From the IMG/VR virus record IMGVR_UViG_3300050821_018577, positions 1-64,000 of that record: 64,000 nt of DNA; one strand, 5' to 3'. This document shows positions 4,984-49,749 of this stretch, one piece after another. The notes beneath the pieces are model-generated. The model was not told where the DNA came from. It did no database searches and saw only the letters and a program-made list of their open reading frames with translations. A program made the position numbers and the translations under genes. The stretch comes from a virus. Each line of letters opens with the position of its first letter. The stretch's first letter is position 1.

Positions 4984-5344
4984 ACCCACAGGAAACTATC
5001 TCAATCAGTGGATGGTCAGCAGCCATACCGACCCGGACAAAGAGTATAAGGTCAGCCAGACAGAAGATGGCGATTGGAAATGCTCCTGTCCGCGTTGGAT
5101 CTTTGGCAAGGCCCCCAAGCAGGACTGTAAACATATTATTGCCATCAAGGTGGAAGAGCCTGTCGACACCAAGAGGACGTCGCGCAGAGCGGCCGAGGCA
5201 TTTGCTCGCACGCGAATCGAATGGACGGACGCCCGCCTGTCGATGGGTAAGTCGAAAAAGAGTCCGGTTCCACCGACGCCATCGATTCCATCGGAACCTG
5301 TGTTCTTGTTGCAGACCCGCCGCAGCATCCAGCTGGTGGATTAA
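4964..5344 (+). CDS. SWIM zinc finger protein
   Basis: WKCSCP...DCKHI SWIM signature. Confidence 0.8.
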   Translation: MMVTQLRPTGNYLNQWMVSSHTDPDKEYKVSQTEDGDWKCSCPRWIFGKAPKQDCKHIIAIKVEEPVDTKRTSRRAAEAFARTRIEWTDARLSMGKSKKSPVPPTPSIPSEPVFLLQTRRSIQLVD

Positions 5345-5713
5345 ATGTCGCCATCAGACCCCACCATCTGGGCGCTAAAGGTCACCGGTATCATAGCTTG
5401 TGTCGCGTGTTTGCTAGTTTTCGTTATTGGAACAGTTCATTACCGCTGGAAAAGGCGATATGAACGAGCAATGCGGACATTCCATGCTCCGGAGCCTGAA
5501 AAGGAACCGTCGGGCACTTATACCGTATATTTTACTTGCCCGAATTGCGCCGAACGAACCCGCGTAGATATTCCGAGAGGCACACGCAAGGACGAAATGG
5601 AACCTTTCCCGTGTCGCAACTGCGGATGCCTATATCAGTTCACTAAAAATAATGATGAAGTTGGAGGCTTTGTGCTGGCTCCATCTCCGCGCAAGATTAG
5701 AGTAATTGACTAG
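5345..5713 (+). CDS. membrane-anchored Zn-ribbon protein
   Basis: N-terminal TM helix, CPNC and CRNC. Confidence 0.65.
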   Translation: MSPSDPTIWALKVTGIIACVACLLVFVIGTVHYRWKRRYERAMRTFHAPEPEKEPSGTYTVYFTCPNCAERTRVDIPRGTRKDEMEPFPCRNCGCLYQFTKNNDEVGGFVLAPSPRKIRVID

Positions 5714-5730
5714 CATTGCCGTTGTGTTAT

Positions 5731-5743
5731 CTTAGACCATAAG
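5731..5743. promoter_or_regulatory. operator-like palindrome CTTAG-ACC-ATAAG
   Basis: one mismatch to the CTTAG-N3-CTAAG consensus, intergenic. Confidence 0.5.
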
Positions 5744-5789
5744 TTTCGACAATCAAGTACAGGAGATTAGATACAGTAATGCAGAAAAA

Positions 5790-6173
5790 TTGCTTTGCCT
5801 GATGGTGCTCGATGACGGCGTTGTGCAGGACGTCATCGTTCCCGGAGCAAAGCCGGCGTTTTGGCGCGCCTTCATCGTACAGAACCGCGAGACAGGGATC
5901 GTCTCCTGCAAATATCGATTCAAACAGATTGACGCTACGAATTGGTACGAAATCACACCGAAAGAACAAAATGCCAACACAGTAAAAGTATTGCGCGAAA
6001 AAGTGGAAACTGTATTCCGCCTAGCCTCCGGTGCGTTCGGTGCCGACCCGAATAAAGCTATTCAATGTTTTTATCCACCCGATGACGGCGGCGACGGAGC
6101 TAAGACCATCATCTGGCTCGAAATGCAGGATCTTGCCGAAATCACGAAGGTCGTTAAATCCGATGAAACGTAA
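5790..6173 (+). CDS. hypothetical protein (start uncertain)
   Basis: open frame filling gap, overlaps next gene. Confidence 0.6.
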   Translation: MLCLMVLDDGVVQDVIVPGAKPAFWRAFIVQNRETGIVSCKYRFKQIDATNWYEITPKEQNANTVKVLREKVETVFRLASGAFGADPNKAIQCFYPPDDGGDGAKTIIWLEMQDLAEITKVVKSDET

Positions 6174-6504
6174 CCCATGGCAACCGCCATCCGACTTGGA
6201 CCCGGAGTGCCTTGCGCTCTGTGTGGCATTGAACAAGATGCCGGGCATCCAAACAACCGATTCTTGTTGCGGTCACGGTAAAAATCCATACTGGATTTTC
6301 TTTCAACCGACAAATTTGGCCTCGTTGCCGAGACTTCTTTATTGGTTCGATTCCTGTCACTGCGGCTGTAGAAATTGGCGTGTTATCGCCTATACCGATT
6401 GTTCCGCCGACAGAGCGCGATTCATGGTTGAGGGGCCGGTCGGGGCCTATGACGATGCCAAACACATTGCTGAGTTAATCGAAAAGGATTTGAAAGGAGC
6501 GTGA
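6163..6504 (+). CDS. hypothetical protein
   Basis: TTDSCCGHG motif; coupled. Confidence 0.65.
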   Translation: MKRNPWQPPSDLDPECLALCVALNKMPGIQTTDSCCGHGKNPYWIFFQPTNLASLPRLLYWFDSCHCGCRNWRVIAYTDCSADRARFMVEGPVGAYDDAKHIAELIEKDLKGA

Positions 6505-6507
6505 GAC

Positions 6508-6822
6508 ATGGAAATAGCCAAAGACCGTATCTTGGCGTTGGCGAACAACGTCAATTTCAAGTTCGGTAGAGATGTCGTCATCGCCGACGGCATACGGATC
6601 GGAGACTTGTTCGATTCCTACCGAGCGACCGTTTCAACCAAACCGGTCCGCATTATCATGGACGGCGGACTGATTGAAGAAGTCCAAAACGTTCCAGTCG
6701 GTCTCACCATCGAAGTCTACGACTACGACCTTTCGGATTCCGACCATCCGAACGTCATAAAAGACGAAGAAGGCACACTGGTGTTCCACAACATCTATAC
6801 GAGCGAGGGCCAGGTCAAGTGA
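6508..6822 (+). CDS. hypothetical protein
   Basis: AGGAG RBS; acidic IEVYDYD motif. Confidence 0.6.
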   Translation: MEIAKDRILALANNVNFKFGRDVVIADGIRIGDLFDSYRATVSTKPVRIIMDGGLIEEVQNVPVGLTIEVYDYDLSDSDHPNVIKDEEGTLVFHNIYTSEGQVK

Positions 6823-7718
6823 CGACAAAAGCCTTGCCGTTTCCTGAACCGCTCTACGAGAGATATAGACCAAAACGGATTGCGGATTTTATCGGCCTAG
6901 TAAAAGTAAAACGGATCATAGAACCTTTCGTCAAAGCGCCGTTTGAGTCCAACTGGCTGTTCCTGGGAGGCTCAGGCCTCGGCAAGACGACACTGGTGCA
7001 GGCTATTGCCGATGAAATCAATGCGGAGCTCCACGAGATTCCTTCCGCCGAGTGTGACCTTGAGCGCGTGCTTCACGTTACTGGTTTATGCACATATGGC
7101 GCATTCAACTTTGCCAAGGGCACGACGTCTGTCTGGCACGTCGTGGGAATTCACGAAGCTAATTGGATCACGCAAGCGGCTCAGAAATCTTTGGTTTCCA
7201 AGATGGATTCCACTAACCCGCCGCCAAAGACTATTTTCATTCTGACGGCCAACACCAAAGAAACCATCGAGCCTAAACTGCTAACGCGTCTGACCGAGAT
7301 TTCCTTCACCGAAGAATCGGTGGAGGATGAGCTTCCGGATTACCTAGCCAAGATTTACAAGAAAGAAGGTGGCCGGCATCCACTCGACTTCGCGGCAATT
7401 TCGAAACTTTGCAAGTACAACGTCCGGGACGCGCTGCTTAAATTGCAGGTTGAGCTCCTGATTGGCACCAATCGCAAAGGCCTGCCGACCGAGGATCTGA
7501 AAATCCTGCCAACCCATCAGCACGAATGCGAGAAGTGCAGGAAGCCGTGGAAATGCAGTCAACTGAAATGCAAGTTGCCGCATGTGAGCGTCTGTCCAGA
7601 GTGCGGCGGCTCGAGGACCGTTGGCCAGGAACGGGCCAAGAAAGCCTGGAAAACGATTCGCGACAATATTGCCGAAGAACTGAAACAGAAACCAAAGAAG
7701 AAAGGAAAGGCCGCATGA
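6819..7718 (+). CDS. clamp-loader/RarA-like AAA+ ATPase with C-terminal Zn ribbon
   Basis: LYERYRP (RFC box II-like), Walker A GGSGLGKTT, FILTAN sensor 1, variant Walker B GIHEA. Confidence 0.8.
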   Translation: MTTKALPFPEPLYERYRPKRIADFIGLVKVKRIIEPFVKAPFESNWLFLGGSGLGKTTLVQAIADEINAELHEIPSAECDLERVLHVTGLCTYGAFNFAKGTTSVWHVVGIHEANWITQAAQKSLVSKMDSTNPPPKTIFILTANTKETIEPKLLTRLTEISFTEESVEDELPDYLAKIYKKEGGRHPLDFAAISKLCKYNVRDALLKLQVELLIGTNRKGLPTEDLKILPTHQHECEKCRKPWKCSQLKCKLPHVSVCPECGGSRTVGQERAKKAWKTIRDNIAEELKQKPKKKGKAA

Positions 7719-8002
7719 CACATACGCCTGGACCATTTGAAATTATGGAGCTTGCCACTCCGCTAAAGGACTGGACGGGCGGGCGATTCATCATCGAGGC
7801 CCCTAGCGCACCGGGAGGCTTAGCCGTGACAATCGGTGGATTGGGCGAAGAAGAACGCGCCAATGCCAATTTGTTCAAGGCCGCGCCTAAACTGCTGCTC
7901 GCTTGCGAGCTTATGTTTCAGGTCATCGACCGTGAAAGATGGTACACCCCACGCCAGCGAGAAGAGATTAAAGCCGCCATCAATGAAGCGAGGGCCGCAT
8001 GA
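7715..8002 (+). CDS. hypothetical protein
   Basis: MTHTPGP...ANANLFKAAPKLL, a common phage small-protein pattern. Confidence 0.7.
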   Translation: MTHTPGPFEIMELATPLKDWTGGRFIIEAPSAPGGLAVTIGGLGEEERANANLFKAAPKLLLACELMFQVIDRERWYTPRQREEIKAAINEARAA

Positions 8003-8328
8003 ACATCAAATACGCCGATTTTTTTCATCTGGCGCCACAATTCGCGGACCGGTTCGAGCATCTTGCACCCGGCGAAGATGGCGTAATCGACCGCGATGAC
8101 AAGCGAGTCCTAGCCAAGTTTCGTCGGCTACTGGAGAAATTGCGACAGGATTTGCTTGCAGCGCCAAGTCGGACCAGTACGCCATTGGATGCCCAAGCTA
8201 TCGCCTTCGAGGTTCTCGGACACATCGACACGATGTATCCGGCGATGTGGAACGGAGTGCCCAAAACCGCGCGAGTCAGTTTGCGCAACACGATTGTCAG
8301 GGCAATCGCACGGCAGGAGAAATCATGA
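7999..8328 (+). CDS. hypothetical protein
   Basis: ATGA overlaps. Confidence 0.6.
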   Translation: MNIKYADFFHLAPQFADRFEHLAPGEDGVIDRDDKRVLAKFRRLLEKLRQDLLAAPSRTSTPLDAQAIAFEVLGHIDTMYPAMWNGVPKTARVSLRNTIVRAIARQEKS

Positions 8329-9021: not shown

Positions 9022-9028
9022 GGAAAAG

Positions 9029-9517: not shown

Positions 9518-9726
9518 ATAGTAAGACAAACGACGGCAAGAGTGACTACTGCGAGTGTGGACGACTCCGCACTGCTTGCGTTGGTGGGTTTACTAAAAAC
9601 CGTAACACTTTGCACGGCGACCGGGGCGAATTCCGCAATAAGCCTTTAGTGCCGGTGTTCGTTGTAGACCGCGAAGCCTACGACTTGAACCTGGAAGAAG
9701 GCAGTGCGCAACGGAGAATGAAATGA
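9514..9726 (+). CDS. hypothetical protein
   Basis: ATGA overlaps. Confidence 0.5.
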   Translation: MNSKTNDGKSDYCECGRLRTACVGGFTKNRNTLHGDRGEFRNKPLVPVFVVDREAYDLNLEEGSAQRRMK

Positions 9727-10310
9727 AGTTTGAGGACACAGTGCGCCGCTATGCCAAAGTGGCGCGGCAGGAAATTCTTCGTGACTTTAGAAGCGATTCT
9801 TGTATCGCTTCAACGCGCATCACCATCCGTGTCATGCGCGAGTTTGGGATCGCCGCGGAGCCGGTTAGTGTCAACTACATCGTCGGCAATCCCGAATGGG
9901 CGCGGCGGATAATCGACCAGCAAGAACCTTGGCCCGCCCGCGAAAGCCTTTTCAAGTGGTGCGAAACGACAGGCGCCTGGAGCGTTGGAGTGGGCAACGG
10001 AGAAGAACGCGAGGGCGGCTGGCCGGGACATCTGATAGCCTATTTACCGAAGCACCGTTTTTTAATCGACGCCAGTATCGACCAAGCCAATCGTCCAGCA
10101 AAAGGGATCGTTTTGCCGCCGGTACTGCTATCGCCGGATGTGCCGCCGCGATTTCTGACCGGAGAGATGTCTCTTGAAGCGCGCATTCAGGGAATGTACC
10201 TGCAATATGTTTGCGTCCCCAACGAGACATTCCGTAAGTCCAAGGACTGGACAGAATTTTCCAGAATCAAGCCGGTCGTCAAACGGATCGTAAAAGAGAT
10301 GGAAAGTTAA
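9723..10310 (+). CDS. hypothetical protein, possibly transglutaminase/papain-like fold
   Basis: N-terminal DSCIA, then GHL and LIDAS give a C/H/D spacing suggestive of a triad. Confidence 0.55.
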   Translation: MKFEDTVRRYAKVARQEILRDFRSDSCIASTRITIRVMREFGIAAEPVSVNYIVGNPEWARRIIDQQEPWPARESLFKWCETTGAWSVGVGNGEEREGGWPGHLIAYLPKHRFLIDASIDQANRPAKGIVLPPVLLSPDVPPRFLTGEMSLEARIQGMYLQYVCVPNETFRKSKDWTEFSRIKPVVKRIVKEMES

Positions 10311-23798: not shown

Positions 23799-24079
23799 GA
23801 GGGCATCCGAAGGAACCGCATCGCCTGCTGTGCATGGTCTACCGCGAGAATCGTTTTATCGGTTGGGTCATCGCCAGTGCCGATATTTTGCAGCTTCCAT
23901 TTCGCAAGTGTCCGGGCTATAGCGTTCGCGTCAGACTCACAACGGGAGATACAGCGCATGACCTGAACAATTTGTTCCGTCGCGCTCGTTGTTTACGGGA
24001 TTACGGCAATGAAAATTTTAGCCGTGCAGCCAAGCAGGCAAAGCAAAAGGAGAAACACAATGGGCTCAGGAAGGTATAA
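23795..24079 (+). CDS. hypothetical protein
   Basis: ATGA overlap. Confidence 0.5.
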   Translation: MRGHPKEPHRLLCMVYRENRFIGWVIASADILQLPFRKCPGYSVRVRLTTGDTAHDLNNLFRRARCLRDYGNENFSRAAKQAKQKEKHNGLRKV

Positions 24080-24995
24080 CGACGATACGTATCACAGGGC
24101 AGCAACTAGTAGAAGAATGACAGGAACGGATGATTTTGAATATTCTCGGACCGCCACAGCACTTCATCCGGACCTGAACCCGAAGCGGATCCGCAACAAG
24201 CCATTCGGTAAACTCGAAAGCCGGGACAGTTTGGAGCATCCCGAATCCAATGCGGTAGTTCTCTGCATCGACGTTACTGGCTCAAACATCGCGCGTGCAC
24301 GTGAGGCTCAAAAGAAATTACCGAATCTCATGGCCTTAGTTACGCGCTACCTGCCGCATCCCCAAGTGGCGGTCGCGGCCAATGATGATTACTACGTGCA
24401 AGCCGATAGGTCTTTGCAATTCTCAGACTTCGAATCGGATAACCGGATCGATGAGCACATCCGAAAATTACTGCTGACGAGCGACGGCGGCGGCAACCAG
24501 GGCGAATCCTACGACTTGGTCATGTATGCGGCCGCTCACAAGACCGTCTTGGACTGCTTTGAGAAGCGCGGACGCAAAGGCTACTTTTTCATGTATGCCG
24601 ATGAACCCATCTTCTCGACTTCTGCCAAGGAACAGGTCAATGACTTGTTTGGGGATGGCCTTACGCGTTCCATCCCGGTCGAGGAAACAATCCGGTCTCT
24701 CAAGGAGCTCTACCATGTGTTTGTTATGTGGCCAAACAAGAGCGCCTATCCGAACGCACGCGAACAGTACGTTCAACTCTTTGGGGACGATTGCGTTGTA
24801 ACTCTTCAAGACCCCAAGGTCATCTGCGAAGTCGCAGGCGGGCTCATCGGCATGACCGAAGGCCAACTCCATAACGAAACGGACGTCGTTAACGACCTGG
24901 TGGCTGCGGGCACTGACGCTGCGGACGCTGCCGCTATTAGCCGAGTCCTCTGGGGCGGTCGTAGGATCCACCTGGGTGGCACAGCAACGGCCTAA
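24060..24995 (+). CDS. vWA (MIDAS) domain protein
   Basis: LCIDVTGSN, GGGNQGESYDL, FFMYADEP; AGGAGA RBS. Confidence 0.85.
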   Translation: MGSGRYNDDTYHRAATSRRMTGTDDFEYSRTATALHPDLNPKRIRNKPFGKLESRDSLEHPESNAVVLCIDVTGSNIARAREAQKKLPNLMALVTRYLPHPQVAVAANDDYYVQADRSLQFSDFESDNRIDEHIRKLLLTSDGGGNQGESYDLVMYAAAHKTVLDCFEKRGRKGYFFMYADEPIFSTSAKEQVNDLFGDGLTRSIPVEETIRSLKELYHVFVMWPNKSAYPNAREQYVQLFGDDCVVTLQDPKVICEVAGGLIGMTEGQLHNETDVVNDLVAAGTDAADAAAISRVLWGGRRIHLGGTATA

Positions 24996-29022: not shown

Positions 29023-30190
29023 GAACATCCCTGTATGGGGCAAGCCCGACGATGGTGCGCTATCGCAGATTAAAACCTGCGCGCAAACAGCCGACAAGGT
29101 TGCACTGATGGCTGACCATCATCGTGGCTATGCCGTACCAATCGGCGGCGTCGTAGCCTACCGCGATTCCATCAGTCCGAGCGGCGTTGGATTTGACATC
29201 GCGTGCGGCAACAAAGCCGTGCTCACGGACATGCCCGGCGAAGCTCTGCGCAATAACATCCACGCGGTCATGGATGCCATCTGGAAAACCATCAGCTTCG
29301 GCGTAGGCGGCACAAACAACGAGCAGGTAGACCATTCGCTCTTTGCGCGTGATGCTCATCCCGGGTGGAATACGGATGCCGCCAAACCGTTGAAGCGGAT
29401 GGCGCAAGAGCAGCTCGGCACGGTCGGTTCGGGTAATCACTACGTCGATGTATTCACCGACGAACTGGACCGCGTGTGGGTCGGCGTGCACTTCGGCTCC
29501 CGCGGGCTAGGCCATAAAATCGCCACCTGGTTCCTGAACGCTGCCGGGGCAAAAGACGGCATGGACGTCGAGCCATGCGTCCTGAAAGCCGAATCGGATC
29601 TCGGAGCACAATACCTCTCGGCCATGGACCTGGCCGGAAAGTATGCCTATGCCGGCAGGGATTGGGTTTGCCAGCGCGTAGCGGCCATCCTGGGGGCCAA
29701 AGTCCTCGAGGAAGTCCATAACCACCATAACTTCGCTTGGCGCGAAATCCATGGCGGCGAGCACTATTGGGTCGTCCGCAAAGGGGCTACCCCGGCTTTT
29801 CCAGGGCAGAAAGGCTTTGTTGGCGGGACTATGGGCGAAATCTCCGTCATCCTCGAAGGCATAGAGAACGAAGCCGCGAAGTATTCGCTCTACAGCACCG
29901 TGCACGGCGCCGGCCGGGTCATGGGGCGGTCGGAAGCGAAAGGCAAGGTCGACCGCAAGACCGGGGAAGTAAAGCGAGTCGGAAAAGTCACCCAACAAAT
30001 GATGGACGGTTGGGTACAGCGTGCGAACATCGAACTGCGCGGCGCCGGCCTGGATGAATCACCAGACTGTTACAAACGCCTGCCGGATGTTTTGGCAGAG
30101 CACGGAGACAGCATCAGGATTTTACACACATTGACACCGGTTGGGGTAGCGATGGCGTCCGCTCACGAAAAAGACCCCCACAAGGACTAG
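29009..30190 (+). CDS. rtcB: RtcB family RNA ligase
   Basis: MADHH.GYAVPIGGV, GFDIACG, GTVGSGNHY, HFGSRG, HNHHN, RKGATP, HGAGR, DESPDCYK. Confidence 0.95.
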   Translation: MQFIENIPVWGKPDDGALSQIKTCAQTADKVALMADHHRGYAVPIGGVVAYRDSISPSGVGFDIACGNKAVLTDMPGEALRNNIHAVMDAIWKTISFGVGGTNNEQVDHSLFARDAHPGWNTDAAKPLKRMAQEQLGTVGSGNHYVDVFTDELDRVWVGVHFGSRGLGHKIATWFLNAAGAKDGMDVEPCVLKAESDLGAQYLSAMDLAGKYAYAGRDWVCQRVAAILGAKVLEEVHNHHNFAWREIHGGEHYWVVRKGATPAFPGQKGFVGGTMGEISVILEGIENEAAKYSLYSTVHGAGRVMGRSEAKGKVDRKTGEVKRVGKVTQQMMDGWVQRANIELRGAGLDESPDCYKRLPDVLAEHGDSIRILHTLTPVGVAMASAHEKDPHKD

Positions 30191-32749: not shown

Positions 32750-33522
32750 GACCTCGGAGCCATCAACTCGTACATACGTCTTACGGTCGGTGTACCCACG
32801 CCGGCGCTTCTCGTCAGGATCGCGGAATAGATTTCAGGTAGGCCCGCCTCACCTAATTCACCGAGCACGGCATCGACCAGTGCGCGCCAGGTGTTTTTAC
32901 GTGCCACTCCGCCAGCAAGTATCTCTTTCGCAAATCCGGCCATCCGGTCGACCTGTACGGCTTGGTCGTATAAGGCGAAGCCTACCATGTCTCGGCGATG
33001 ATTCTTTTCAAAGAGCACGAACATGAGCGGCAGACGCAAACGAGGAAACAGGCGCCGCGGAATTATCTCCGCGCGCATCGACCAGTGGGCCCGCCAGCGT
33101 TCCACCGTGTTGTGTGTCTGCATCGCATAGGCCGGCAACAGCAGCCCGCATGTCCGGCAATCCGCCAGGTGCGTGATGCGCTGCAGGAACGCGCCGATAG
33201 TGCGTACGGCGAACGGGGGATTGCCCACCGCCGCGGTAATGCCCTCGGGTAGCTCCACGGACCTAAAATCGCCAGTAATGACCTTTCGTCCTGTGTTCTG
33301 CCGACAAGCTTCGGCGACGTCAGGGTCGAGCTCTACGCCAATAGCCGGGATCTCCCCTGGAATAGCCTTCAAAAACGCTCCCAGCCCGCAGGAAGGCTCA
33401 AGAACCAGGTCTGAGGCAGAGAGATGCGGGAAGAACTTTTCGACCAGTTCAATCGCCGCCCATTCGGGGGTCCAATACTGGTACTGCGCCGCGTTCAAGC
33501 GTTGGTCGAAATGAAGCTGCAT
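32677..33522 (-). CDS. N6-adenine DNA methyltransferase
   Basis: QYWTPEW, VLEPSCGLG motif I, GNPPF motif IV. Confidence 0.85.
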   Translation of the reverse strand: MQLHFDQRLNAAQYQYWTPEWAAIELVEKFFPHLSASDLVLEPSCGLGAFLKAIPGEIPAIGVELDPDVAEACRQNTGRKVITGDFRSVELPEGITAAVGNPPFAVRTIGAFLQRITHLADCRTCGLLLPAYAMQTHNTVERWRAHWSMRAEIIPRRLFPRLRLPLMFVLFEKNHRRDMVGFALYDQAVQVDRMAGFAKEILAGGVARKNTWRALVDAVLGELGEAGLPEIYSAILTRSAGVGTPTVRRMYELMAPRSCFGRTGSAGWRNWPNAQAGDARS

Positions 33523-33753
33523 TCACCAGGGCCTCGGCTTGAACATCATGTCCCACGCCCAATCCTGCGTGTACGGACAGAACGGGCAAATCCAACCATT
33601 CTCGGTCGCTACCAGCTTGCCTTCACCGTCCAGATGGTGCTCATCGGTGCGATTGCCGCTCCCGCAGGTGAACGGGTGCATCCAGCCTTCTTCCTGGAAG
33701 CGATTGAGCCCCTCAACTTGTTCCTTGGTCCAGGGCGCTTCGATTTTATTCAT
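33523..33753 (-). CDS. hypothetical protein
   Basis: MHPFTC...LVATENGWICP.CPYTQDWA pattern. Confidence 0.7.
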   Translation of the reverse strand: MNKIEAPWTKEQVEGLNRFQEEGWMHPFTCGSGNRTDEHHLDGEGKLVATENGWICPFCPYTQDWAWDMMFKPRPW

Positions 33754-33953: not shown

Positions 33954-34183
33954 TCCGCAGCTTTCCTGTTTGGAGTCTTGCGCATGTCAAGCGCGTGCTC
34001 CAAAGCGTCGCGTAATTTGTCATCCGGAGCCGTTTCGATGTTCAGGTAAATCCAAAACGCCACGGTTGCCGCGGCCGTGCGGTCGTGGCCGACAAGCACA
34101 AACGTTTGCTCGCCGGCTTTTTCCGCATTGCCCAACAATCGCTTGGCTTCCGCCAGATGGTCACCACGTTCGACTTGACTCAT
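33950..34183 (-). CDS. hypothetical protein
   Basis: TFVLVGHDRTAAATVAFW; GGAGG RBS. Confidence 0.65.
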   Translation of the reverse strand: MSQVERGDHLAEAKRLLGNAEKAGEQTFVLVGHDRTAAATVAFWIYLNIETAPDDKLRDALEHALDMRKTPNRKAAD

Positions 34184-34599
34184 TAAACCTCCAAAATTCT
34201 CCGCATCATTGCCTGCGCTTCTTTTACGGTCATCCATTTTTCAGGTTTGCACCCGAAAGGACATCGCATATTTGGGTCGTCAATCATCCCCCACGTCCTG
34301 CACACGAACGGACGGTGTTCATAGACGCGGCATTTGCCGCTCGGATAGAGCATCGAACAATTTAGCGTTCCCGGCATCGGCGCAGTGGCCACCAATTTCT
34401 TTTTGGGCATCCATTGCCATCGGCGGTCCAATTGAACCGCATCTATCGAAGAAAGATTGAACACCGCTCCGGTCTTTTCGATTTGCACGTACTCGATACG
34501 CGGGATCAGTAGCGGCCCGCAGGATTCTTGGCACTTCCGCTTGCACTCCATCTTGGGCAGTTCGGCGTAAATTGCCTGCAATTGCTCGGCGGCTGTCAT
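34183..34599 (-). CDS. YkgJ family Cys-cluster (Fe-S/Zn) protein
   Basis: CKRKCQESCG...CSML..GKCRVYEHRPFVCRTWG. Confidence 0.8.
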   Translation of the reverse strand: MTAAEQLQAIYAELPKMECKRKCQESCGPLLIPRIEYVQIEKTGAVFNLSSIDAVQLDRRWQWMPKKKLVATAPMPGTLNCSMLYPSGKCRVYEHRPFVCRTWGMIDDPNMRCPFGCKPEKWMTVKEAQAMMRRILEV

Positions 34600-36300: not shown

Positions 36301-36903
36301 TTATTTACCTCTCGTGATTCCCGGTATCTTCATGCGGTCTTGATGCTCTACAGCGAAGGTGCGAAATCGGTCGAGCACGGCGTTGACCTGCTCGATGCGG
36401 TCCTCTGGCGTCCCAGCATCATACATGGCCTCGATATACGAACCGATGGCGTCGCACGAGGCATTGTCGCGACCACGCAAGATGAACAGCGGCTCATCAT
36501 CCGGTACGCGTTCGCCGTTGCTGGTCTTGACGAGGTAGCCTTCCGAATCGACGCTGAACATATCATTCAGCTTTCTCAATGCAGGAAGTATCGGCGGAAT
36601 GCGCTTGTCGGCATTGCCTTTGCCCAAACCAATCTCACATACGGAAACAATCTGCGTTCGCGGGTCAAGTGAACCACCGACGGCTGGATAGAGTCCGCCT
36701 ACAAAAAGATTCTCTAGGATTTCCAGGTCAGCGATGAATTTGTCTCCCTCTCTGCGTATCATTGCCTTTCCAACTGGATGTTGAAAATTTACGCTGACGC
36801 GAATCTGTTCGGCAATGGCTACGCGGTCCGCAAGAACTTTATCGCCATGCGCATCCTCTGTGCCGTCGGCGATTAGAACGAGCACGTCTTTGATGATTTT
36901 CAT
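36301..36903 (-). CDS. hypothetical protein
   Basis: DEPLFILRGRD motif in C-terminal half. Confidence 0.65.
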   Translation of the reverse strand: MKIIKDVLVLIADGTEDAHGDKVLADRVAIAEQIRVSVNFQHPVGKAMIRREGDKFIADLEILENLFVGGLYPAVGGSLDPRTQIVSVCEIGLGKGNADKRIPPILPALRKLNDMFSVDSEGYLVKTSNGERVPDDEPLFILRGRDNASCDAIGSYIEAMYDAGTPEDRIEQVNAVLDRFRTFAVEHQDRMKIPGITRGK

Positions 36904-37169
36904 ATCTGAATTCTCCGCCCGCCAAGGAATTGCTCTGGCGCCTCTTGGATAGATGCTAGCTTCGAAAGCCGGTCATCAATAACCTTTTGGCGGTAAGTGA
37001 GCATTACAAATCGGTCATCAAACCTTGCGCTCATCTCGCAGAACTTCTCATCGATGCGACGGATCTCCTCATCGATGCGACGGCTATCCCTCTCGAAGAA
37101 CCAAGCCAGTGCGGAGACTATACATCCCGCACTGGTGATAGCTATAACTAAAAGCGTGAGGTCGTTCAT
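36900..37169 (-). CDS. membrane-anchored protein ending GGRRIQI
   Basis: N-terminal TM helix; GGAG RBS. Confidence 0.65.
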   Translation of the reverse strand: MNDLTLLVIAITSAGCIVSALAWFFERDSRRIDEEIRRIDEKFCEMSARFDDRFVMLTYRQKVIDDRLSKLASIQEAPEQFLGGRRIQI

Positions 37170-37510
37170 AGCTGAATTCTCCGTCTCGCGTCCAGCACCA
37201 GCGCCGGAACCCACAGGTCTCTCTCGAACACTCCCTTGGTTTCCTCGTAGATTTGCTTGAACTCCCGGTAGGCGCGCTCGTAGCAATCGCAGTAATGAGG
37301 GCCGCCTTCGATTGCGTCTAGAATACCTTCGCGCGGGCCGTCATGTTCGGTGACGCCATCTTTATTGCGCCAGGAACGCACTGCATCGAAATCGTGCGCA
37401 GCCGCGTGGATCTCAAAGGCACGATGCCATATTCGCTCAAACTTGCGCGATTCCTCTTCGCTTGGCAGCGGGAAGCCTTCCGGGAGATGCTCGCGAGGCG
37501 TTTTCAGCAT
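37166..37510 (-). CDS. hypothetical protein ending RRRIQL
   Basis: ATGA overlap. Confidence 0.65.
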   Translation of the reverse strand: MLKTPREHLPEGFPLPSEEESRKFERIWHRAFEIHAAAHDFDAVRSWRNKDGVTEHDGPREGILDAIEGGPHYCDCYERAYREFKQIYEETKGVFERDLWVPALVLDARRRIQL

Positions 37511-40252: not shown

Positions 40253-40485
40253 ACGACCAAGAATTTGTTTTGGCAAAATATCCACGCGCTGAATGCTTTG
40301 GACCAGTCAACCTATATTGGCCCGGACAGGGCACGCGTAGAAAGTATATTGTCACATCCGCGCCACATATGAGCAGGACAGAAGGTGAAGGCGATACGCC
40401 AGCAGAAGCGTGGACCAATGCGGCAGTGAGAATCAAAGCGGTCGCGGCCGCTAAAAAGATTCTTCCTGGGAAGAACGATGGGTAG
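40249..40485 (+). CDS. hypothetical protein
   Basis: VLAKYPRAEC...AEAWTNAA pattern. Confidence 0.65.
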   Translation: MNDQEFVLAKYPRAECFGPVNLYWPGQGTRRKYIVTSAPHMSRTEGEGDTPAEAWTNAAVRIKAVAAAKKILPGKNDG

Positions 40486-40870
40486 GCACGGACATGCTTC
40501 CATTCCGTTCGGCATCCACAAAGGCATCCGCGTACGCTTACTGCCCGACCCTTACCTGTCCTGGCTCACAACGACGTTCATTATGACTGCGCCAGAGTGG
40601 CGTTGGCTCAAGGACAGCGTCCTCAGTGAATTAAATTTCCGTGGACTGCGTTCCGATTTGGTCGACCTACATGTGAAGCCCGGCTGCCAGGCGGTGGTGC
40701 CGCCCTATTGGAATACGTTGCTGGAATGTACCAGCGAGACGTGCAACCGTCCGTTGCCGTGCACCATACATACGGTCGAGGAATCGGCGCAGACTAGGTT
40801 TGAGTTTGCGGAGGCCAAATTCCTACTGGAATCCAAGCGACGCATCCGTGTCGAAGGCGAGCGCACATGA
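40478..40870 (+). CDS. DUF3820-like protein ending KRRIRVE
   Basis: IPFGIHKG..VRLLPDPYLSWL. Confidence 0.7.
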   Translation: MGRHGHASIPFGIHKGIRVRLLPDPYLSWLTTTFIMTAPEWRWLKDSVLSELNFRGLRSDLVDLHVKPGCQAVVPPYWNTLLECTSETCNRPLPCTIHTVEESAQTRFEFAEAKFLLESKRRIRVEGERT

Positions 40871-41076: not shown

Positions 41077-41366
41077 TTCGCCTTGTCCAATGGCTCTGTC
41101 CGCAGCGGCACTGCATCGTAGCGGTTGCCTACGACCCTGAACATCAGGACCATGATGCTGCCATTGCCCAGATGGAATCCTTTGTGGCCGCCGCTAATGT
41201 GCTGCCACACTGCGGTCTGTGCGGGTCGAAGTCACTGTTCTACGATGACCAGCCTACGAAATTTGAGACTATGCAACAGGCGCAAGCAACTCGCCAATCT
41301 CAGAACGCAGGAATATTTGAAGGCGTCGAGGAATTAAGAGATGCTCTCCCTGGTTCGAATCGATAG
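41073..41366 (+). CDS. hypothetical protein
   Basis: QWLCPQRHCIVAVAY...PHCGLCGS. Confidence 0.6.
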   Translation: MIRLVQWLCPQRHCIVAVAYDPEHQDHDAAIAQMESFVAAANVLPHCGLCGSKSLFYDDQPTKFETMQQAQATRQSQNAGIFEGVEELRDALPGSNR

Positions 41367-42168
41367 CGACATTCCTAACGGCATAAAGTATTTTGTGATA
41401 GCCGAGGAAAGTGTGCTTGCGGTCGCGCGTGAGTATATTAGCCCGGTGACCGGCCGCAGGATGCGCAGCGGCGTTCCCTCGGTTCGAAATATTGTGGTAG
41501 TACACCGCCCCGACGGGTGGGCCTGCCAAGCCTGTCAGCCGCCACCGTACCATCCCGTCTTGGCGCCACCCTGTGAACATATCCGGTTTGCAATTGAGCT
41601 ATATTTAACCAACGGCTACGCGACGACGGAGCGTGAAGAATACTTGCAAGAGTGCGCGAGGCAGAGCAGGGAAGCGGAAGCTCGAGGCGCACGCCGCATT
41701 GAAAACGCAAGTGACGTAGAGCTAGAGGACCGCGCTAATCATCCGGACTGGTTTATTCCACGAAACAGCATCACTGGCGAAGAAATAGATAGGGTGCGCG
41801 CGGAAGCATACACCGAAATGAATCACCGTCGCGCCAGGCGGCAGCACGAGAGGCTCACTCACGACCGCGCAATTGCCGAGCGACGCGCAAGGAACGCACA
41901 AATCGACCGCGAACGCGCACGATTTTCTTGGCAGTGGTTTGACAATTTGTTACCTGAATCGGAACAGGTCAAGGTCAGATGTTGTAATGCTCCTAACACC
42001 GATGGAAGTTACCGGTGCAATAAGGAACTTGGACATTCAGGCGACCATGTTCATAGTTTTATCCGCAATGGTGAGCGTGACTTTTATTGGTGGCCAGTGA
42101 AGCCGGCGCCTGAACCAATCGCCACCTTGGACCTCCACGCCAAGCGCAGGATCAGGGTCGAAGAGTAG
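41341..42168 (+). CDS. hypothetical protein with SWIM-like motif, ending KRRIRVEE
   Basis: WACQAC...PCEHI; C-terminal CxxxxGHSGDH. Confidence 0.6.
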   Translation: MLSLVRIDSDIPNGIKYFVIAEESVLAVAREYISPVTGRRMRSGVPSVRNIVVVHRPDGWACQACQPPPYHPVLAPPCEHIRFAIELYLTNGYATTEREEYLQECARQSREAEARGARRIENASDVELEDRANHPDWFIPRNSITGEEIDRVRAEAYTEMNHRRARRQHERLTHDRAIAERRARNAQIDRERARFSWQWFDNLLPESEQVKVRCCNAPNTDGSYRCNKELGHSGDHVHSFIRNGERDFYWWPVKPAPEPIATLDLHAKRRIRVEE

Positions 42169-44393: not shown

Positions 44394-44461
44394 AGCGGTA
44401 CAACTATACCATAGAACCTTGACTTTACTGGTGCAAATGTACCATAATCCCGGAATCGTTT

Positions 44462-46103: not shown

Positions 46104-46441
46104 TGCGCCTATGGCTCGACGATATTCGAGAGCCATGGAAGCACGGCTGTGTCGGTTGGGATTGGGCCAAGACCGCCGAGGAAGCTATCGCATTTCTGCG
46201 CACCGGCACGGTCACCATCGCTTCGCTCGACCATGACCTAACTCCAGAGCAAACGCTTGGTGGAATCTACGGCGTAATTAAGACGGACGGCCAGAAGTCA
46301 GGATACGACGTTGTGGTGTGGCTTGAAGAACATCCAGAATTCTGGCCTGCGGACGGTGTTCGCGTGCATTCGATGAATCCCGCCGGCCGCAAACGGATGC
46401 TGCAGGTGATTGAACGTCATTACAATGAGCGCACCGGCTAG
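46103..46441 (+). CDS. cyclic-phosphate processing receiver domain protein
   Basis: LWLDDIRE, SLDHDL, SGYDVVVW, VHSMNPAGR. Confidence 0.85.
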   Translation: MRLWLDDIREPWKHGCVGWDWAKTAEEAIAFLRTGTVTIASLDHDLTPEQTLGGIYGVIKTDGQKSGYDVVVWLEEHPEFWPADGVRVHSMNPAGRKRMLQVIERHYNERTG

Positions 46442-46752
46442 GATTCCGCCCTGTCACCTAGCGTTAGAGGCTTATTCTCCCCGTATCCCTTGCGACCGAG
46501 CTCGGTTAGGGGGCCCTAGTGCCATTTCGGGCCGATGAAGGGCTTGCCTCCGCCTGTTGGCACCGTCAGAGCAGCAAGGTCAATTCCTTTTCAGCCAGCC
46601 GCGTGCTGCCGTTTAAGGCGACGCGATTGCGCTGTCACGCTCTGCAAAGCTTCGAAGGTGTCCGGGATCGTTTCACTCGGTCCCCGCCTTGACTTCAAAC
46701 GGGAGATGCGTCTCTGCCCGGCACACGGTGCGCTCGCGCGGAGTATACACCT

Positions 46753-46801
46753 AAAAAGACCGGCGCGGGAAGAGGTCGGAGTTCTTCGGAACCGCGCCGG
46801 T
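46753..46801 (-). terminator. putative intrinsic terminator
   Basis: 10-bp stem ACCGGCGCGG/CCGCGCCGGT followed by CTTTTT on minus. Confidence 0.55.
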
Positions 46802-46837
46802 ACGTTGTGTCCCTCTTGGAGCAACAGATTGACAGAA

Positions 46838-46867
46838 ATCCTATTGCAAACTTACAGGCTAAGTCAA
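46838..46867 (-). promoter_or_regulatory. candidate promoter with operator
   Basis: TTGACT-18-TAGGAT on minus; CTTAC-AGG-CTAAG at 46851-46863. Confidence 0.55.
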
Positions 46868-46870
46868 GCC

Positions 46871-46908
46871 AAAATAAAAGGCCGACTCTCCGTGAGGAAG
46901 CCGGCCTT
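46871..46908 (-). terminator. terminator downstream of tRNA cluster
   Basis: AAGGCCG/CGGCCTT-type stem followed by TTTTATTTT on minus. Confidence 0.6.
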
Positions 46909-47037
46909 GAGTGGTTGAAGTTGAGTTTGGGAGCTTCGAAGTGTGTTTAACGCGACGGTCGAACCGCCAAAGGCACCAAACATTCCGAAGCCAAGCAAAG
47001 AGATTTTGGCAGCCAAATGCACCACCGTCAAGGAATT

Positions 47038-47115
47038 TGGAGCGCCTGACGGGATTCGAACCCGCAACCCTTCGCCCTAGGAGACGAATGCTCTGCGCAG
47101 TTGAGCTACAGGCGC
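47038..47115 (-). tRNA. atypical tRNA (Arg-CCT-like) with 8-nt anticodon loop CUCCUAGG
   Basis: GCGCCTG/CAGGCGC acceptor, T73, encoded CCA, T-loop TTCGAAT, anticodon stem TTCGT/GCGAA, D-loop lacks GG. Confidence 0.75.
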
Positions 47116-47166
47116 TCGGAGGAATATTTTTTATTCTTATAGGAACAAAAAATATTCCTGAAAACT

Positions 47167-47219
47167 TGGCGCCGGAGTCCCACTTAAGGGCACGCAGCAC
47201 TAGCAGCCGCGCCTCCGGC
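47167..47219 (-). ncRNA. 53-nt CCA-ended D-armless tRNA-like element
   Basis: GCCGGAG/CTCCGGC stem + G + CCA; 7-bp hairpin with loop TGCTAGT; short CCC-TTAAGT-GGG hairpin. Confidence 0.45.
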
Positions 47220-47723
47220 ACTGGCTCGCCCGGTGTGACTTGAACACACATCGTCAGCTTTAGAGGCTGCTGCACTGGCCGGTTGTGCTACAGGCGAACT
47301 GAAATCTGGAGCCGCTGGCAGATTACGAGTCTGCGGCCTCTCGGTTAAAACCGAGTGCTCTTTATCGGAAGAAACTTCCGGTCGATGCTGAGCTACAGCG
47401 GCGTGGTTGTAAACTCGATAGTTGGCCAGCGCCTTGCGCTGCTCGCCGGCGATCGGGCTCGTCGCAATTGCGGTGAGCTCGTCATTGAAGTCAGGCTCGT
47501 GCCAAGAAAAATGCGGGATGTTATTGGCGCATAGCTTTGCTTCCGCGCGGCGAAGCGACGCCAAGTGCGGCAGGCCAATCAAAACCATATTGGGAATTCC
47601 TTCTTCACAACGAAGCGAGGCAACGTGGAAGGAGGCATGAGCGGTCTGAATAATTTGCGCAGGGATGGGGATGTCGGTTCGAACGAACAGGAAAACGTAG
47701 CGGTCGTCGCTTATCTATGTCAT
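47184..47723 (-). CDS. PTH2-like (peptidyl-tRNA hydrolase) protein with in-frame TAG at codon 3; frame runs into tRNAs
   Basis: ATG ACA TAG ATA...YVFLFVRTDIPIPAQIIQTAHAS...WHEPDFNDELTAIA; in frame with track ORF 47184..47588. Confidence 0.65.
47222..47297 (-). tRNA. amber suppressor tRNA (anticodon CTA)
   Basis: 76 nt cloverleaf: TCGCCTG/CGGGCGA, D-arm GCAC/GTGC with GG, loop CT-CTA-AA, T-arm GTGTG-TTCAAGT-CACAC, G73, CCA. Confidence 0.88.
47307..47402 (-). tRNA. degenerate Lys(TTT)-like tRNA with enlarged D-loop
   Basis: GCCGCTG/CAGCGGC + T + CCA; 6-nt loop TTTTAA; D-loop carries extra CGGAAG/CTTCCG hairpin; T-loop CTCGTAA. Confidence 0.55.
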
Positions 47724-47729
47724 GGTCAA

Positions 47730-47759
47730 ACTGTGCCAGAACTGCGGATTCGGTGTCAA
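47730..47759 (-). promoter_or_regulatory. candidate promoter giving a leaderless PTH2-like/tRNA transcript
   Basis: TTGACA-18-(TGn)CACAGT, 6 nt before ATG 47723; no SD. Confidence 0.45.
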
Positions 47760-47761
47760 CT

Positions 47762-47797
47762 AAAAACCGAAGCGCCGTTCACACGCGGCGCCTCGGT
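47762..47797 (-). terminator. terminator after terminase gene
   Basis: ACCGAGGCGCCG/CGGCGCTTCGGT stem then TTTT on minus. Confidence 0.6.
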
Positions 47798-47914
47798 CAT
47801 TACTTCCTATCCCCGCAGAGAGTCTATCATGGAACCTTCCAATTTTCGAACGGTTGCTCTTGCGCTCGCGGCCACCAGCGGACACGCAAACCGCGGAAGC
47901 CAGGGATCACGAAC

Positions 47915-48078
47915 GGCATGGCGTGGCAAGTTAAGGTACGGCGGGGTGCGGCATGGCTGCGAGTGGACAAGGAGCGGCGTGAGAAGGCGGGCGCGGTGCG
48001 GTCCCGCAAGGCATGGCAAGGCCGGGCGAGTAATGGCCTGGTGAGGCAAGGCGGGCATGGTGTGGCGTGGCGTGGTTA
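47915..48078 (+). repeat. GGY-NN pentamer array (about 30 units)
   Basis: ggcat ggcgt ggcaa gttaa ggtac ggcgg ggtgc ggcat ggctg ... ggcat ggcaa ggccg ggcga gtaat ggcct ggtga ggcaa ... ggcat ggtgt ggcgt ggcgt ggtta. Confidence 0.85.
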
Positions 48079-49749
48079 TTATTTTTCCAATTGAATTCGT
48101 CTGCCGCCGAGCGGTCGCTGAATTACTTGCGTGCAATCATAATTTTGACCGCAATGATTACAGTGACGGGAATTTGCAATGGTGACCTGCATCGTGACTT
48201 CATTGCAGTTCGGGCACCTCGGCGTTTGGTCGTTGGTCATGACAGCGGCCAATGATGTCGCGCCAGCCACTTTTTCAAGCGACGTGGTCTTTCCGGTCAC
48301 GGTGTTAGTAAAAGTGACCCGGCCAACCAGCGGCGGAGCATCATCGCCATTGCGAACCGGTGTTCTTGGTATTGGTTGACGTCCCATCATTTTCTCCGCG
48401 CGTCCGGACTTAAACAAATCGAGCAGCCCTAGGGCCCCGGCGCCGGAGAGCTCCGTTCCTACCCAGACCATGGCGTCAAGTCGGTTCGGCGATTTTTGTC
48501 CTGGCTGTGCGCAATAGCTGACCAATTCTTCTTCGAGCGCAGAAAACTCGGTACATTGAGGCTTGCCGCAACTGCAAACCAGGTGCATTTTGTTTTGCTG
48601 GAACAGCGCAAGGATCGGCTCGGCGCGCACCAGCTTGCCGCGGGATGCGCTCACATCATGGTAAGAGACGTTTTCATCCACATTGCGGATGGTCTCTTCA
48701 ACCATGTCCCCACCGTAGTTTCTCTCAGCGATGATGCGGTCAGCTGCGTAGCCGTAGTAGGTGCGGATGGCCGTGGTCGCCCAATCCCGCGGCCGCGCTG
48801 CGCGCATGGAATCGTCGTGGAGAATGTAGATATGCCCGTCCTCGCCTTCACCGCCGGTCATGATGCCTACTTCGGTCATGTTGCCGCCAGAAGGATCGAT
48901 GCCCACTACGATGCGCCGCAAACGAATCTCCTGGTCGCTGGTCAACAATGAGCCGGCATTGTAGCTGGCGGTCACGCGGCTATCCTCGATAATTTTCCGC
49001 GTCCACAACGCACCGGGAATCTCTTCGGTGTCCTCGGCCAGAATTTCTTGCCGATAGGCCAGCGAACTCATGTTGTGGGTGACTTCCTCGAGGCCTTCTT
49101 TTGAAAGATGTGGATTGGCGGAACTCGGGAAATGCAGGCACAGCCACAATGGGTCGTTCTTGTACTTCTTGAACATCTTGGCGGCGTGCTGCGGATCTCG
49201 GGCTTTGCTGGCGCTGCGCGTCTCAAGCGATGGTGGCGTGTAAATGAACACCACGTCGCCGTTGTTATCAATCAGCATGGGCGCGCCGACTTCGGTCCAT
49301 GCCGTTTCATCCATCATCTGGTATTCATCGAGAATCAAAAGGTCGGCATAATCACCGCGAAGCGTTTCGGCGTTGAACGCGGTCTTTGCCCGTATTCTGC
49401 GGTCGGTGCCGCGCTGTTCGATGATGTGTTCGGTTTCGTTTTTATACAGCCGGCCAAAGGCGATTGGTTCATCGAGAGCCAGCAGCACTTCTTTCCAGAA
49501 TTTCTTCACCTGGTCGATCGTGGGCGCGGCGTAGAGCACGCGCTTGCCTTTGAGAAATTGTTCCACAGCAAGGATTGCTGAACCAGTCGTCTTTCCAGAG
49601 CGTCTTCCAGCGCGAATGATTTTTCGTTTAAGTGGCGACCGGCAAAATCGCAACTGATATGGATTGTCCGCGGGATTGCGCAGATTGATTTTGAACTGCT
49701 GGGGCTTTGGCGCTTCGGCGTCTGGCGGAATTATGGGATTGGAAGCCAT
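48079..49749 (-). CDS. terL: terminase large subunit with C-terminal Zn-ribbon extension
   Basis: Walker A AGRRSGKT, Walker B LILDEY, nuclease VVGIDPSG, SPNRLDAMVW. Confidence 0.9.
   Translation of the reverse strand: MASNPIIPPDAEAPKPQQFKINLRNPADNPYQLRFCRSPLKRKIIRAGRRSGKTTGSAILAVEQFLKGKRVLYAAPTIDQVKKFWKEVLLALDEPIAFGRLYKNETEHIIEQRGTDRRIRAKTAFNAETLRGDYADLLILDEYQMMDETAWTEVGAPMLIDNNGDVVFIYTPPSLETRSASKARDPQHAAKMFKKYKNDPLWLCLHFPSSANPHLSKEGLEEVTHNMSSLAYRQEILAEDTEEIPGALWTRKIIEDSRVTASYNAGSLLTSDQEIRLRRIVVGIDPSGGNMTEVGIMTGGEGEDGHIYILHDDSMRAARPRDWATTAIRTYYGYAADRIIAERNYGGDMVEETIRNVDENVSYHDVSASRGKLVRAEPILALFQQNKMHLVCSCGKPQCTEFSALEEELVSYCAQPGQKSPNRLDAMVWVGTELSGAGALGLLDLFKSGRAEKMMGRQPIPRTPVRNGDDAPPLVGRVTFTNTVTGKTTSLEKVAGATSLAAVMTNDQTPRCPNCNEVTMQVTIANSRHCNHCGQNYDCTQVIQRPLGGRRIQLEK

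Follow-up and report, generated by a model that had tools for sequence, protein, structure and literature searches.

A short terminal peptide shared by unrelated proteins of a phage and by the AAA ATPase module of this phage and its relatives

The IMG/VR virus record IMGVR_UViG_3300050821_018577 (G000 in our set of genomes) is a single contig of 178,858 bp from a soil phage, with a CheckV completeness of 100%. Its first 64 kb, called the window in this work, contain eight genes whose proteins end in a similar short peptide, usually with Arg-Arg-Ile at its core. Genes were called with a heuristic codon-usage score, which gives 235 proteins, and the motif scan covered the whole genome. The carriers of the peptide are the following:

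4964–5344, plus strand: SWIM zinc-finger protein, 126 aa (Pfam SWIM), ending in ..FLLQTRRSIQLVD, its tail VFLLQTRRSIQLVD encoded at 5300–5341.
5345–5713, plus strand: membrane-anchored Zn-ribbon protein, 122 aa (weak Zn-ribbon Pfam hits, N-terminal hydrophobic helix read from the sequence), tail FVLAPSPRKIRVID encoded at 5669–5710.
24009–24995, plus strand: phrog_2971 protein, 328 aa, identified by its phrog_2971 match, tail VLWGGRRIHLGGTATA encoded at 24945–24992.
36900–37169, minus strand: small membrane and coiled-coil protein, 89 aa, with its likely start ATG at 37169 (the open reading frame spans 36900–37286), tail QFLGGRRIQI encoded at 36903–36932.
37166–37510, minus strand: protein of unknown function, 114 aa, from the translation, tail LVLDARRRIQL encoded at 37169–37201.
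40478–40870, plus strand: 130-aa protein, from the translation, tail FLLESKRRIRVEGERT encoded at 40820–40867.
41341–42168, plus strand: 275-aa protein with a SWIM-like CxC..CxH pattern in its translation, tail LDLHAKRRIRVEE encoded at 42127–42165.
48079–49749, minus strand: terminase large subunit (TerL), 556 aa (Pfam Terminase_6N/6C), with a C-terminal Zn ribbon and then the tail PLGGRRIQLEK, encoded at 48082–48114.
Outside the window, in genome positions, from the genome motif scan: 76382–76660, 133945–134433, 145238–145759, 169206–169589 and 171710–172762.

An initial annotation of the window had quoted the eight C-termini, all of which read as claimed in the open reading frames named, and its count was too low for the genome as a whole. 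The pattern [RK][RK].?I[QRHVIN][LVI] is found within the last 15 residues of 13 of the 235 proteins, eight inside the window and five outside. When the residues of each protein are shuffled (2000 shuffles), the mean is 0.21 proteins and the maximum is 3. Internal matches are limited to four, in about 46,000 positions, and two of these are in fact extreme N-termini: MSLNRRIVLDD at 88346 and MERRIQLQN at 138423. The first one is kept in the orthologue of a related phage as MALDRRIVLED. The carriers were described as unrelated proteins, and this holds: BLASTP of their bodies finds a single weak match, between 4964 and 169206. At least thirteen unrelated proteins of this phage, its packaging motor included, thus end in the same short peptide.

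The peptide is selected at the protein level. The codons used for the shared residues vary from copy to copy: among the 423 pairs of tail positions with the same residue, codon identity is 0.36, with 0.32 expected from the codon usage of the genome. Since the two values are close, the signal corresponds to the protein and not to the DNA, as had been suggested. The initial annotation was also right about two copies in which the sequence CGG AGA serves the next gene. The overlapping start codons, ATG at 36903 and 37169, come about 9 nt after it. The stop codon of the 36900–37169 gene overlaps the following start, and the following gene has GGAGA, in the codons of the tail, as its Shine-Dalgarno-like site. 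This overlap of tail and ribosome binding site (RBS) might suggest that the motif is an artefact of a DNA signal or repeat, or the product of chance. Nevertheless, the remaining 11 copies have no such overlap, codon identity is near the random level, the number of carriers is far above that of the shuffled proteins and the tail is kept across hundreds of genomes. We have rejected an RBS or DNA-repeat origin, and the probability that we give to any artefact of this kind is negligible. Two other statements fared less well. A low-complexity linker precedes the motif in some copies, but this is not general. The label vWA given to the 24009–24995 protein finds no support in our searches: the protein has no Pfam or PDB sequence match, only the match to phrog_2971, a family of unknown function.

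The tails are conserved in related phages. A related IMG/VR contig of 91.8 kb (G001), with about 60–70% protein identity to G000 in synteny, has tailed orthologues of TerL, of the phrog_2971 and SWIM proteins and of the 40478, 169206 and 171710 proteins, with diverged linkers before the tails. In G001 the SWIM orthologue ends in ..FLLQTTRSIVLQD, the phrog_2971 orthologue (72% identity) in ..ILWGGRKINLGTSATA and the 40478 orthologue in ..FPLDGIRAIRLEAE. Two fragments from close kin of this contig (G002 and G003) add two more carriers. The terminase keeps its tail in at least four lineages: it ends in ..GSRRIQLEK in G001, ..GSRRITLEK in G003, ..PIGGRRIIDLHKYR in G004 and ..PIGGRRAIDLRK in G005. 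The last two are more distant phages which retain the Zn-ribbon extension of TerL together with the tail. Shorter TerL relatives, with about 50% identity, lack both the C-terminal extension and the tail. Five further genomes of the group have been studied: G004, G006 and G007, complete by CheckV, G005 (81%) and G008 (86%, first 140 kb only). Each has 7–13 carriers by a fixed rule of the R-x-Φ-x-Φ type (Φ, hydrophobic), a loose rule whose counts include some false positives.

Outside the window, one of the carriers (169206–169589) lies directly after the gene for an AAA ATPase (167584–169203; PF00004, phrog_8638). This ATPase is itself tailed, ending in ..PKGRKINIGD.., ..VGMIQPKGRKINIGD.. Its PF00004 match has an E value of 1.2e-12 and covers residues 316–369, and phmmer matches it to p97, Cdc48 and VAT in the PDB. 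A search of 5.8 billion proteins gives 2488 relatives with E <= 1e-10. Most of the 120 best ones end in G-R-x-[IL]-x-Φ-x-[DE], after a conserved GRFISASxPGVY block and a variable linker; GRAITLEE, GRRISMEA and RRNIRLDEP are examples. The Arg of the tail is invariant in the 29 diverse AAA proteins that we have aligned (29/29).

The neighbourhood of this gene was surveyed in 148 loci, 68 from IMG/VR and the 80 best of 214 matching genome-assembly loci, with clustering of the neighbour genes. Most of these loci belong to soil phages and to prophages in assemblies labelled as Acidobacteriota. A module is found, with these parts: the AAA ATPase, a DUF1257 protein or homologue of about 110–160 aa, a DUF2997 protein of about 60–75 aa, often a third small protein, and a DUF3150 protein of about 300–400 aa. 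The latter is present in 63 of the 68 IMG/VR loci, with the DUF1257-like and DUF2997-like genes between it and the AAA gene, and the arrangement is the same in the 80 best of the 214 assembly loci, mostly from metagenome-assembled genomes (MAGs) labelled as Acidobacteriota. In G000 the DUF2997 copy is at 170594–170779 (PF11211, E 5.1e-18), and another module protein (fam6) is at 170776–171048. The DUF1257-like copy, at 169858–170247, has no PF06868 match; of five relatives grouped with it by BLAST, four reach the PF06868 cut-off. A second DUF1257 subfamily (fam2) is homologous by hhalign, with a probability of 94%. The DUF3150-type protein is the carrier at 171710–172762. It has no PF11348 hit itself; it aligns with 60 relatives, 26 of which match PF11348 (best E 1.5e-11), and its nearest Atlas clusters are DUF3150. 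In these 61 aligned sequences the Arg of the tail is invariant (61/61), and the consensus ending is M-V-V-D-K-P-x-R-[KRA]-[IF]-x-[FLM]-[DE]-[DE].

A position-specific scoring matrix (PSSM) trained only on the tails of other phages ranks the G000 carriers at the top of the G000 proteome. The three highest scores correspond to 37166–37510, 171710–172762 and 133945–134433. Because of this ranking, we consider the motif of the window to be the same object as the tail of AAA and DUF3150 proteins. It is the hallmark tail of the phage AAA ATPase and of its DUF3150 neighbour, both outside the window. The two proteins are tailed in most loci, small proteins adjoining the ATPase often carry the tail too, and a few of these small neighbours do so in many phages. 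The SWIM protein at 4964–5344 belongs to the same family (fam11) as tailed SWIM proteins found directly after the AAA gene in other phages; all eight members of this family are tailed (8/8). Ku is found near the module in some phages, with the motif ahead of a Lys-rich end (..PKRKITLDEE.., ..NKRKFRVEERG).

The titles of the assembly loci are mostly Bryobacteraceae, Terriglobia and Solibacteraceae MAGs, and the loci in contigs of 2–7 Mb suggest prophages. These titles, together with the host of Tunturiibacter phage Tunturi_3, support an Acidobacteriota host for this phage group. The flanks of prophages containing terminase relatives in genome assemblies gave no consistent host. An archaeal virus was considered, as the best terminase hit is Methanosarcina virus MetMV, and this idea was dropped: relatives of the AAA, DUF3150 and terminase proteins are found in Acidobacteriota assemblies and in Tunturi_3. 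A known defence system was also rejected, since the PADLOC models do not match the module: the AAA ATPase resembles IetA only locally, at its P-loop, and the other eight proteins tested gave nothing. No NCBIfam names were obtained, and DUF1257 has no PDB relatives.

Several cultured phages contain related genes. In Tunturi_3 the tails are found in gp103 (..EEDGRIIR), gp96 (..MVQDAPDRKFHLEGEEF) and gp131 (..VRKIRLDNE). The tailed gp96 (PP885686.1, 67395–68354), annotated as an HNH endonuclease, is a DUF3150 homologue (tblastn E 3e-37, 95% coverage), and its annotation looks wrong. Mycobacterium phage Firecracker has tails in gp100 (..TKVRVLDL) and gp99 (..GRAIDFE..ALDFEEVV), with Ku nearby. The same arrangement is found in genes 048 and 049 of Agrobacterium phage JP1, with DUF1257-like and DUF2997 genes. 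Comparison of Firecracker gp99 and JP1 049 with DUF3150 by hhalign is not significant, and their assignment is based on synteny, size and tail. In the cluster O mycobacteriophages (Corndog group; NC_023712.1, 54.5–62.2 kb), the AAA ATPase, a tailed 266-aa protein, a DUF1257-like protein starting with MPCDT.., a ParB-like protein and Ku are in synteny, which makes the module far older than the Acidobacteriota phage group. The AAA ATPase of Corndog has been detected only in infected cells, not in virions (PMC4351075). A DUF3150-like gene is also found in a Cupriavidus plasmid (NZ_CP017753.1, 19.8–38.6 kb), between a MoxR-like ATPase gene and a VWA-like gene. DUF3150 thus accompanies AAA-type ATPases both in the phage module and in a plasmid. 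Since the Cupriavidus copy has no tail, the tail is specific to the phage module and not to DUF3150 as such. This plasmid locus adjoins a PRTRC (ThiF/ParB-related) cassette and SbcCD genes.

Each genome has its own flavour of tail. In G000 it is ..[KR]-R-R-I-[QR]-[LV], in G005 ..R-R-x-I-x-L, in G006 ..R-I-[LF]-[ST]-L, in G007 mostly ..L-R-A-I-E-L and in G008 ..E-R-E-[IV]-R-[LF]-E-D. We have compared positions -1, +1 and +3, which are outside the search rule, among tails of non-homologous proteins, after removing all pairs with detectably homologous bodies. Their identity is 0.234 within genomes and 0.086 between genomes (0/5000 label permutations). When the AAA tail is compared with the DUF3150 tail from its own locus (73 distinct loci), the +3 residue is the same in 44% of them, and in 24% when shuffled (0/5000); both tests ignore phylogeny and the chance that a tail was copied from gene to gene. 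Even so, within one phage the tails of unrelated proteins vary in concert, as a common binding site predicts. Such lineage-specific flavours point to one co-evolving receptor. As flavours differ between related phages, this receptor would more easily be encoded by the phage than be a conserved host protein, and the four module genes are the only phage genes which accompany the tail throughout. In G007 (106 kb), we have also observed four small proteins (9558–9839, 29099–29479, 33455–33697 and 34272–34589) with a near-identical end, ..(P)PKLRAIEL, as paralogy or DNA-level copying of the tail might produce.

AlphaFold models are available for two module proteins. The DUF3150 model, from the 61-sequence alignment, has a pLDDT of 91, with its last nine residues disordered; comparison with the PDB (Foldseek, VIA-align) finds only generic helical bundles, nothing informative. 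The AAA model has a pLDDT of 87 and two tandem AAA-fold domains, and its tail is disordered from residue 494 on. Rix7, p97/VCP D1-D2 and 55LCC align with the whole of it (540–590 columns), with E about 1e-13 (Foldseek). The Walker A and sensor motifs of classical AAA ATPases (PF00004) are present, as well as the tandem AAA-fold domains. The first domain (D1) has no P-loop in its sequence and is degenerate, while the second one (D2) is of the active type. No N-terminal domain for binding substrates or cofactors is seen in the model, where the chain starts with the D1-like alpha/beta domain. Because the tails are disordered in confident models, they behave as free peptides on flexible linkers, in keeping with a short linear motif. 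The active domain has an unusual order: a Walker-B-like strand, DE(IEK), around residue 280, precedes the Walker A P-loop, around residue 320, and the model shows beta-2 and the sensor-1 strand with none between them, as if the Walker B strand had been rewired.

Some other features of the genome may be mentioned here. Two proteins of the window might be further carriers:

34183–34599, minus strand: possible carrier, 138 aa, ending in ..AQAMMRRILEV, which fits R-x-Φ-x-Φ at the extreme C-terminus, with a low PSSM score.
58828–59133, plus strand: possible carrier, 101 aa, ending in ..DDWKRRRLGVN, a weak, rule-based hit.

A second portable C-terminal module, the Zn knuckle ..GMAGGMxxCNQCG.., ends four different G000 proteins outside the window (90757–92274, 94209–94922, 158020–158289 and 162458–162793). 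It also ends the TerL of more distant relatives without the R-x-I-x-L tail (L017–L020), whereas the G000 TerL has a Zn ribbon before its tail. Just downstream of TerL, on the minus strand at 47038–47297, ARAGORN detects two genes: a tRNA labelled tRNA-Pyl, whose anticodon is CUA (amber), and a tRNA-like one whose four-base anticodon loop reads ccta.

In summary, the motif is a terminal peptide, enriched at protein ends, selected at the protein level, conserved, linked to a gene module and co-varying within genomes. We lean, by a small margin over even chances, towards a terminal docking peptide which binds one co-evolving receptor site on a component of the AAA module, gathering clients for remodelling. 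Its core is one Arg followed by x-Φ-x-Φ and then by acidic residues, placed after a hydrophobic patch and a Gly/Pro/Lys turn, on a disordered linker. This Arg is invariant in the AAA and DUF3150 alignments, with Lys in its place in some carriers among other proteins. The tail could bind as an extended strand in one groove, with the Arg and the two hydrophobic side chains facing one way, and the flavour positions might make further contacts with the receptor. The motif is usually C-terminal and sometimes N-terminal, and the N-terminal versions are kept between orthologues, as expected for a strand-docking peptide which needs no free carboxylate. The receptor would be a module component, most probably the DUF1257/DUF2997 pair or the AAA ring itself. 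Binding there might bring the clients and the ATPase together in a single complex, where the ATPase would remodel the clients, or might serve assembly at one site. In the lineage of this phage, the tail has spread to a dozen more proteins, including the terminase, two SWIM proteins, two membrane proteins and the phrog_2971 protein. The list of clients (terminase, SWIM proteins, the neighbourhood of Ku, membrane proteins) suggests, as speculation, a role around DNA ends, replication or packaging.

The initial annotation had proposed a docking or sorting motif which recruits diverse proteins, the terminase included, to one partner such as a scaffold, a clamp-like ring, an AAA+ enzyme or a host factor. 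Docking to one partner is strongly supported by terminal enrichment, conservation in orthologues, disordered tails and co-variation, from which we infer binding; sorting and a scaffold have found no support, and neither has a clamp, as the four complete genomes contain no beta clamp gene. The AAA+ enzyme came closest, since the motif is the tail of a phage AAA ATPase, but this ATPase is a carrier itself and so may not be the receptor. A phage-encoded beta clamp or ClpP as hub has been rejected because neither is found in the four complete genomes. The AAA ATPase as a simple receptor is weakened: besides being a carrier, in its model it has no N-domain and does not dock its tail in cis.

Several points weigh against the docking peptide that we favour. 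Since DUF3150 and the AAA ATPase each bear the tail, neither stands out as the receptor, and in the models, which are those of monomers, the tail does not dock on its own chain. Tunturi_3 has the module with only about three carriers: the module alone does not bring a large network. Part of the flavour shared within a genome could be due to tails copied from one gene to another, or to small proteins whose paralogy escapes detection, and the co-variation across loci has no correction for phylogeny.

Other explanations have to be weighed with these results. The tail might be a degron-like signal for substrate recognition, which the phage AAA ATPase would engage at its pore or entry face, so as to extract or unfold, at a given moment, clients such as terminase, membrane proteins or Ku rings caught on DNA. 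This idea fits the association with a p97-like ATPase and the disordered, terminal tails. It also fits Ku, which carries the motif in some phages and whose gene stays in synteny with the module even in cluster O mycobacteriophages; in eukaryotes, p97 removes Ku from DNA. On the other hand, a tag present on the ATPase and on its constant partner DUF3150 would imply self-targeting, the motif is also found a few residues inside the end and at N-termini, and no ClpP is encoded in the four complete genomes. We find an unfoldase tag unlikely. A host protein might be the common target, if the tail mimics a host motif recognized by the N-domain of ClpX (as the SspB XB peptide), DnaK, the clamp or the RVxF-like groove of a PPP-type phosphatase. 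The tail resembles the basic-hydrophobic docking peptides of SspB (..RPALRVVK), MuA (..RRKKAI) and HslU (..EDLSRFIL), as well as the RVxF motif of PP1. The DUF3150 consensus R-x-I-x-F fits [RK]-x-[VI]-x-[FW], and the same motif core is found in phages of Acidobacteriota, Actinomycetota and Alphaproteobacteria, as for a universal target. Nevertheless, a conserved target would not explain the genome-specific flavours of related phages, the beta-clamp consensus QL[SD]LF does not fit, the motif is always tied to one phage module, and the short Arg-Ile tail of cellular Ycf46 homologues suggests a partner within the Ycf46 system. A host target thus appears rather improbable.

The tails might also recognize each other, pairing as short beta strands with Arg facing Asp/Glu, and cluster around the six tails of the AAA hexamer or DUF3150 oligomers, with no need of a separate receptor domain. 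Every conserved possible hub is tailed, a basic start and an acidic end would suit antiparallel pairing, and genome-specific flavours are also expected under self-recognition. A pair of five-residue strands, however, is too weak alone, there are no repeats or amyloid-like length, and ends such as ..RRIQL and ..RRIQI lack the acidic half: we give little credit to such pairing. As for docking of proteins on the portal or procapsid, the C-terminus of the terminase does so in lambda, P22 and T3, and the terminase is tailed in at least four lineages. However, the carriers are for the most part early or non-structural proteins, with two membrane proteins among them, the terminase has no tail in most phages with the module, and the absence of the Corndog ATPase from virions (PMC4351075) argues against a role in capsid targeting, which seems very improbable. 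Encapsulin cargo peptides, Tat signals, MAPK D-motifs and RHIM/amyloid motifs have been set aside by sequence pattern or context.

The docking peptide may be taken one step further, as a tentative idea to which we give less than even chances. The module could be a phage p97-like remodelling hub with a portable address tag, where a tail of 10–15 residues makes any protein a client. Lineages would have repeatedly rewired to it proteins of the early stage, of DNA ends and of packaging, such as Ku, SWIM proteins and terminase, while tag and receptor co-evolve.

Our searches of the literature on these families and on shared phage motifs gave no description of this motif, in agreement with the initial annotation, and for DUF3150 only one unrelated preprint. 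The motif, the module and the client network are new: a phage-wide network based on one peptide and tied to an AAA ATPase had not been described. If our interpretation is true, it gives a functional lead for the AAA family and for the DUF3150, DUF1257 and DUF2997 proteins of soil phages and cluster O mycobacteriophages. It also predicts physical links among terminase, Ku, SWIM and membrane proteins in large Acidobacteriota phages, and gives a simple, testable rule, based on one Arg and two hydrophobic positions.

Clamps, proteasomes and ClpX are known to use shared terminal peptides for docking. The beta-clamp motif and the PIP box are also terminal short linear motifs on many unrelated proteins of one genome, but the phage tails do not show QL[SD]LF, QLxLxL or Qxx[LIM]xx[FY][FY] and have no conserved Gln, and no phage clamp is present in the four complete genomes. 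The HbYX/GQYL tails, which dock on the 20S proteasome, are found both on ring AAA ATPases (PAN, Rpt subunits, Mpa, archaeal Cdc48) and on unrelated activators or chaperones: all these proteins have a flexible tail with the same short C-terminal peptide, as their receptor pockets are the same. The phage tail has no Tyr, so that the Hydrophobic-Tyr-X pattern is absent; its core is followed by 0 to about 20 residues, it may also be N-terminal, and these phages have no 20S, ClpP or other peptidase. The SspB XB peptide, which binds the N-domain of ClpX, is another short basic-hydrophobic peptide on a disordered linker; it probably binds by strand addition, and several unrelated adaptors or substrates have it. 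ClpX itself, however, has no XB peptide, while the phage ATPase has no N-domain and is itself a carrier, and the resemblance is tentative.

Closer in architecture is p97/Cdc48, with its cofactor motifs (VIM, VBM, SHP) and a C-terminal tail bound by PUB/PUL domains. The D1-D2 organization, the disordered C-terminal interaction tail and the motif-bearing partners are alike. On the other hand, the phage D1 is degenerate, the N-domain is absent and identity is about 14%, and the phage partners share the tail motif of the ATPase itself, not motifs that bind the ATPase. The other relative is the set of Ycf46, Ycf35 (DUF1257) and DUF2997 genes of cyanobacteria and plastids, where a DUF2997-ycf35 gene cluster has been listed (PMC4284462). 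The phage module shares with it a homologous AAA protein, DUF2997 (E 5e-18) and, in relatives, DUF1257 matches. The AAA profile matches open reading frames of about 500–580 aa in 41 of 61 sampled Cyanobacteriota genomes (best E 6e-27), presumably Ycf46 from their size and phylum. In them, a short Arg-Ile tail (..GRARLAS...SSRIQRQLQ or ..QRMLISDN) follows the block equivalent to that of the phage proteins. These tails are only loosely alike, and DUF3150 and the client network belong to the phage versions; still, they hint weakly that tail and partner may be old features of the Ycf46/Ycf35/DUF2997 system. If so, a receptor found in the phage would be a first handle on this long-unexplained system of cyanobacteria and plastids.

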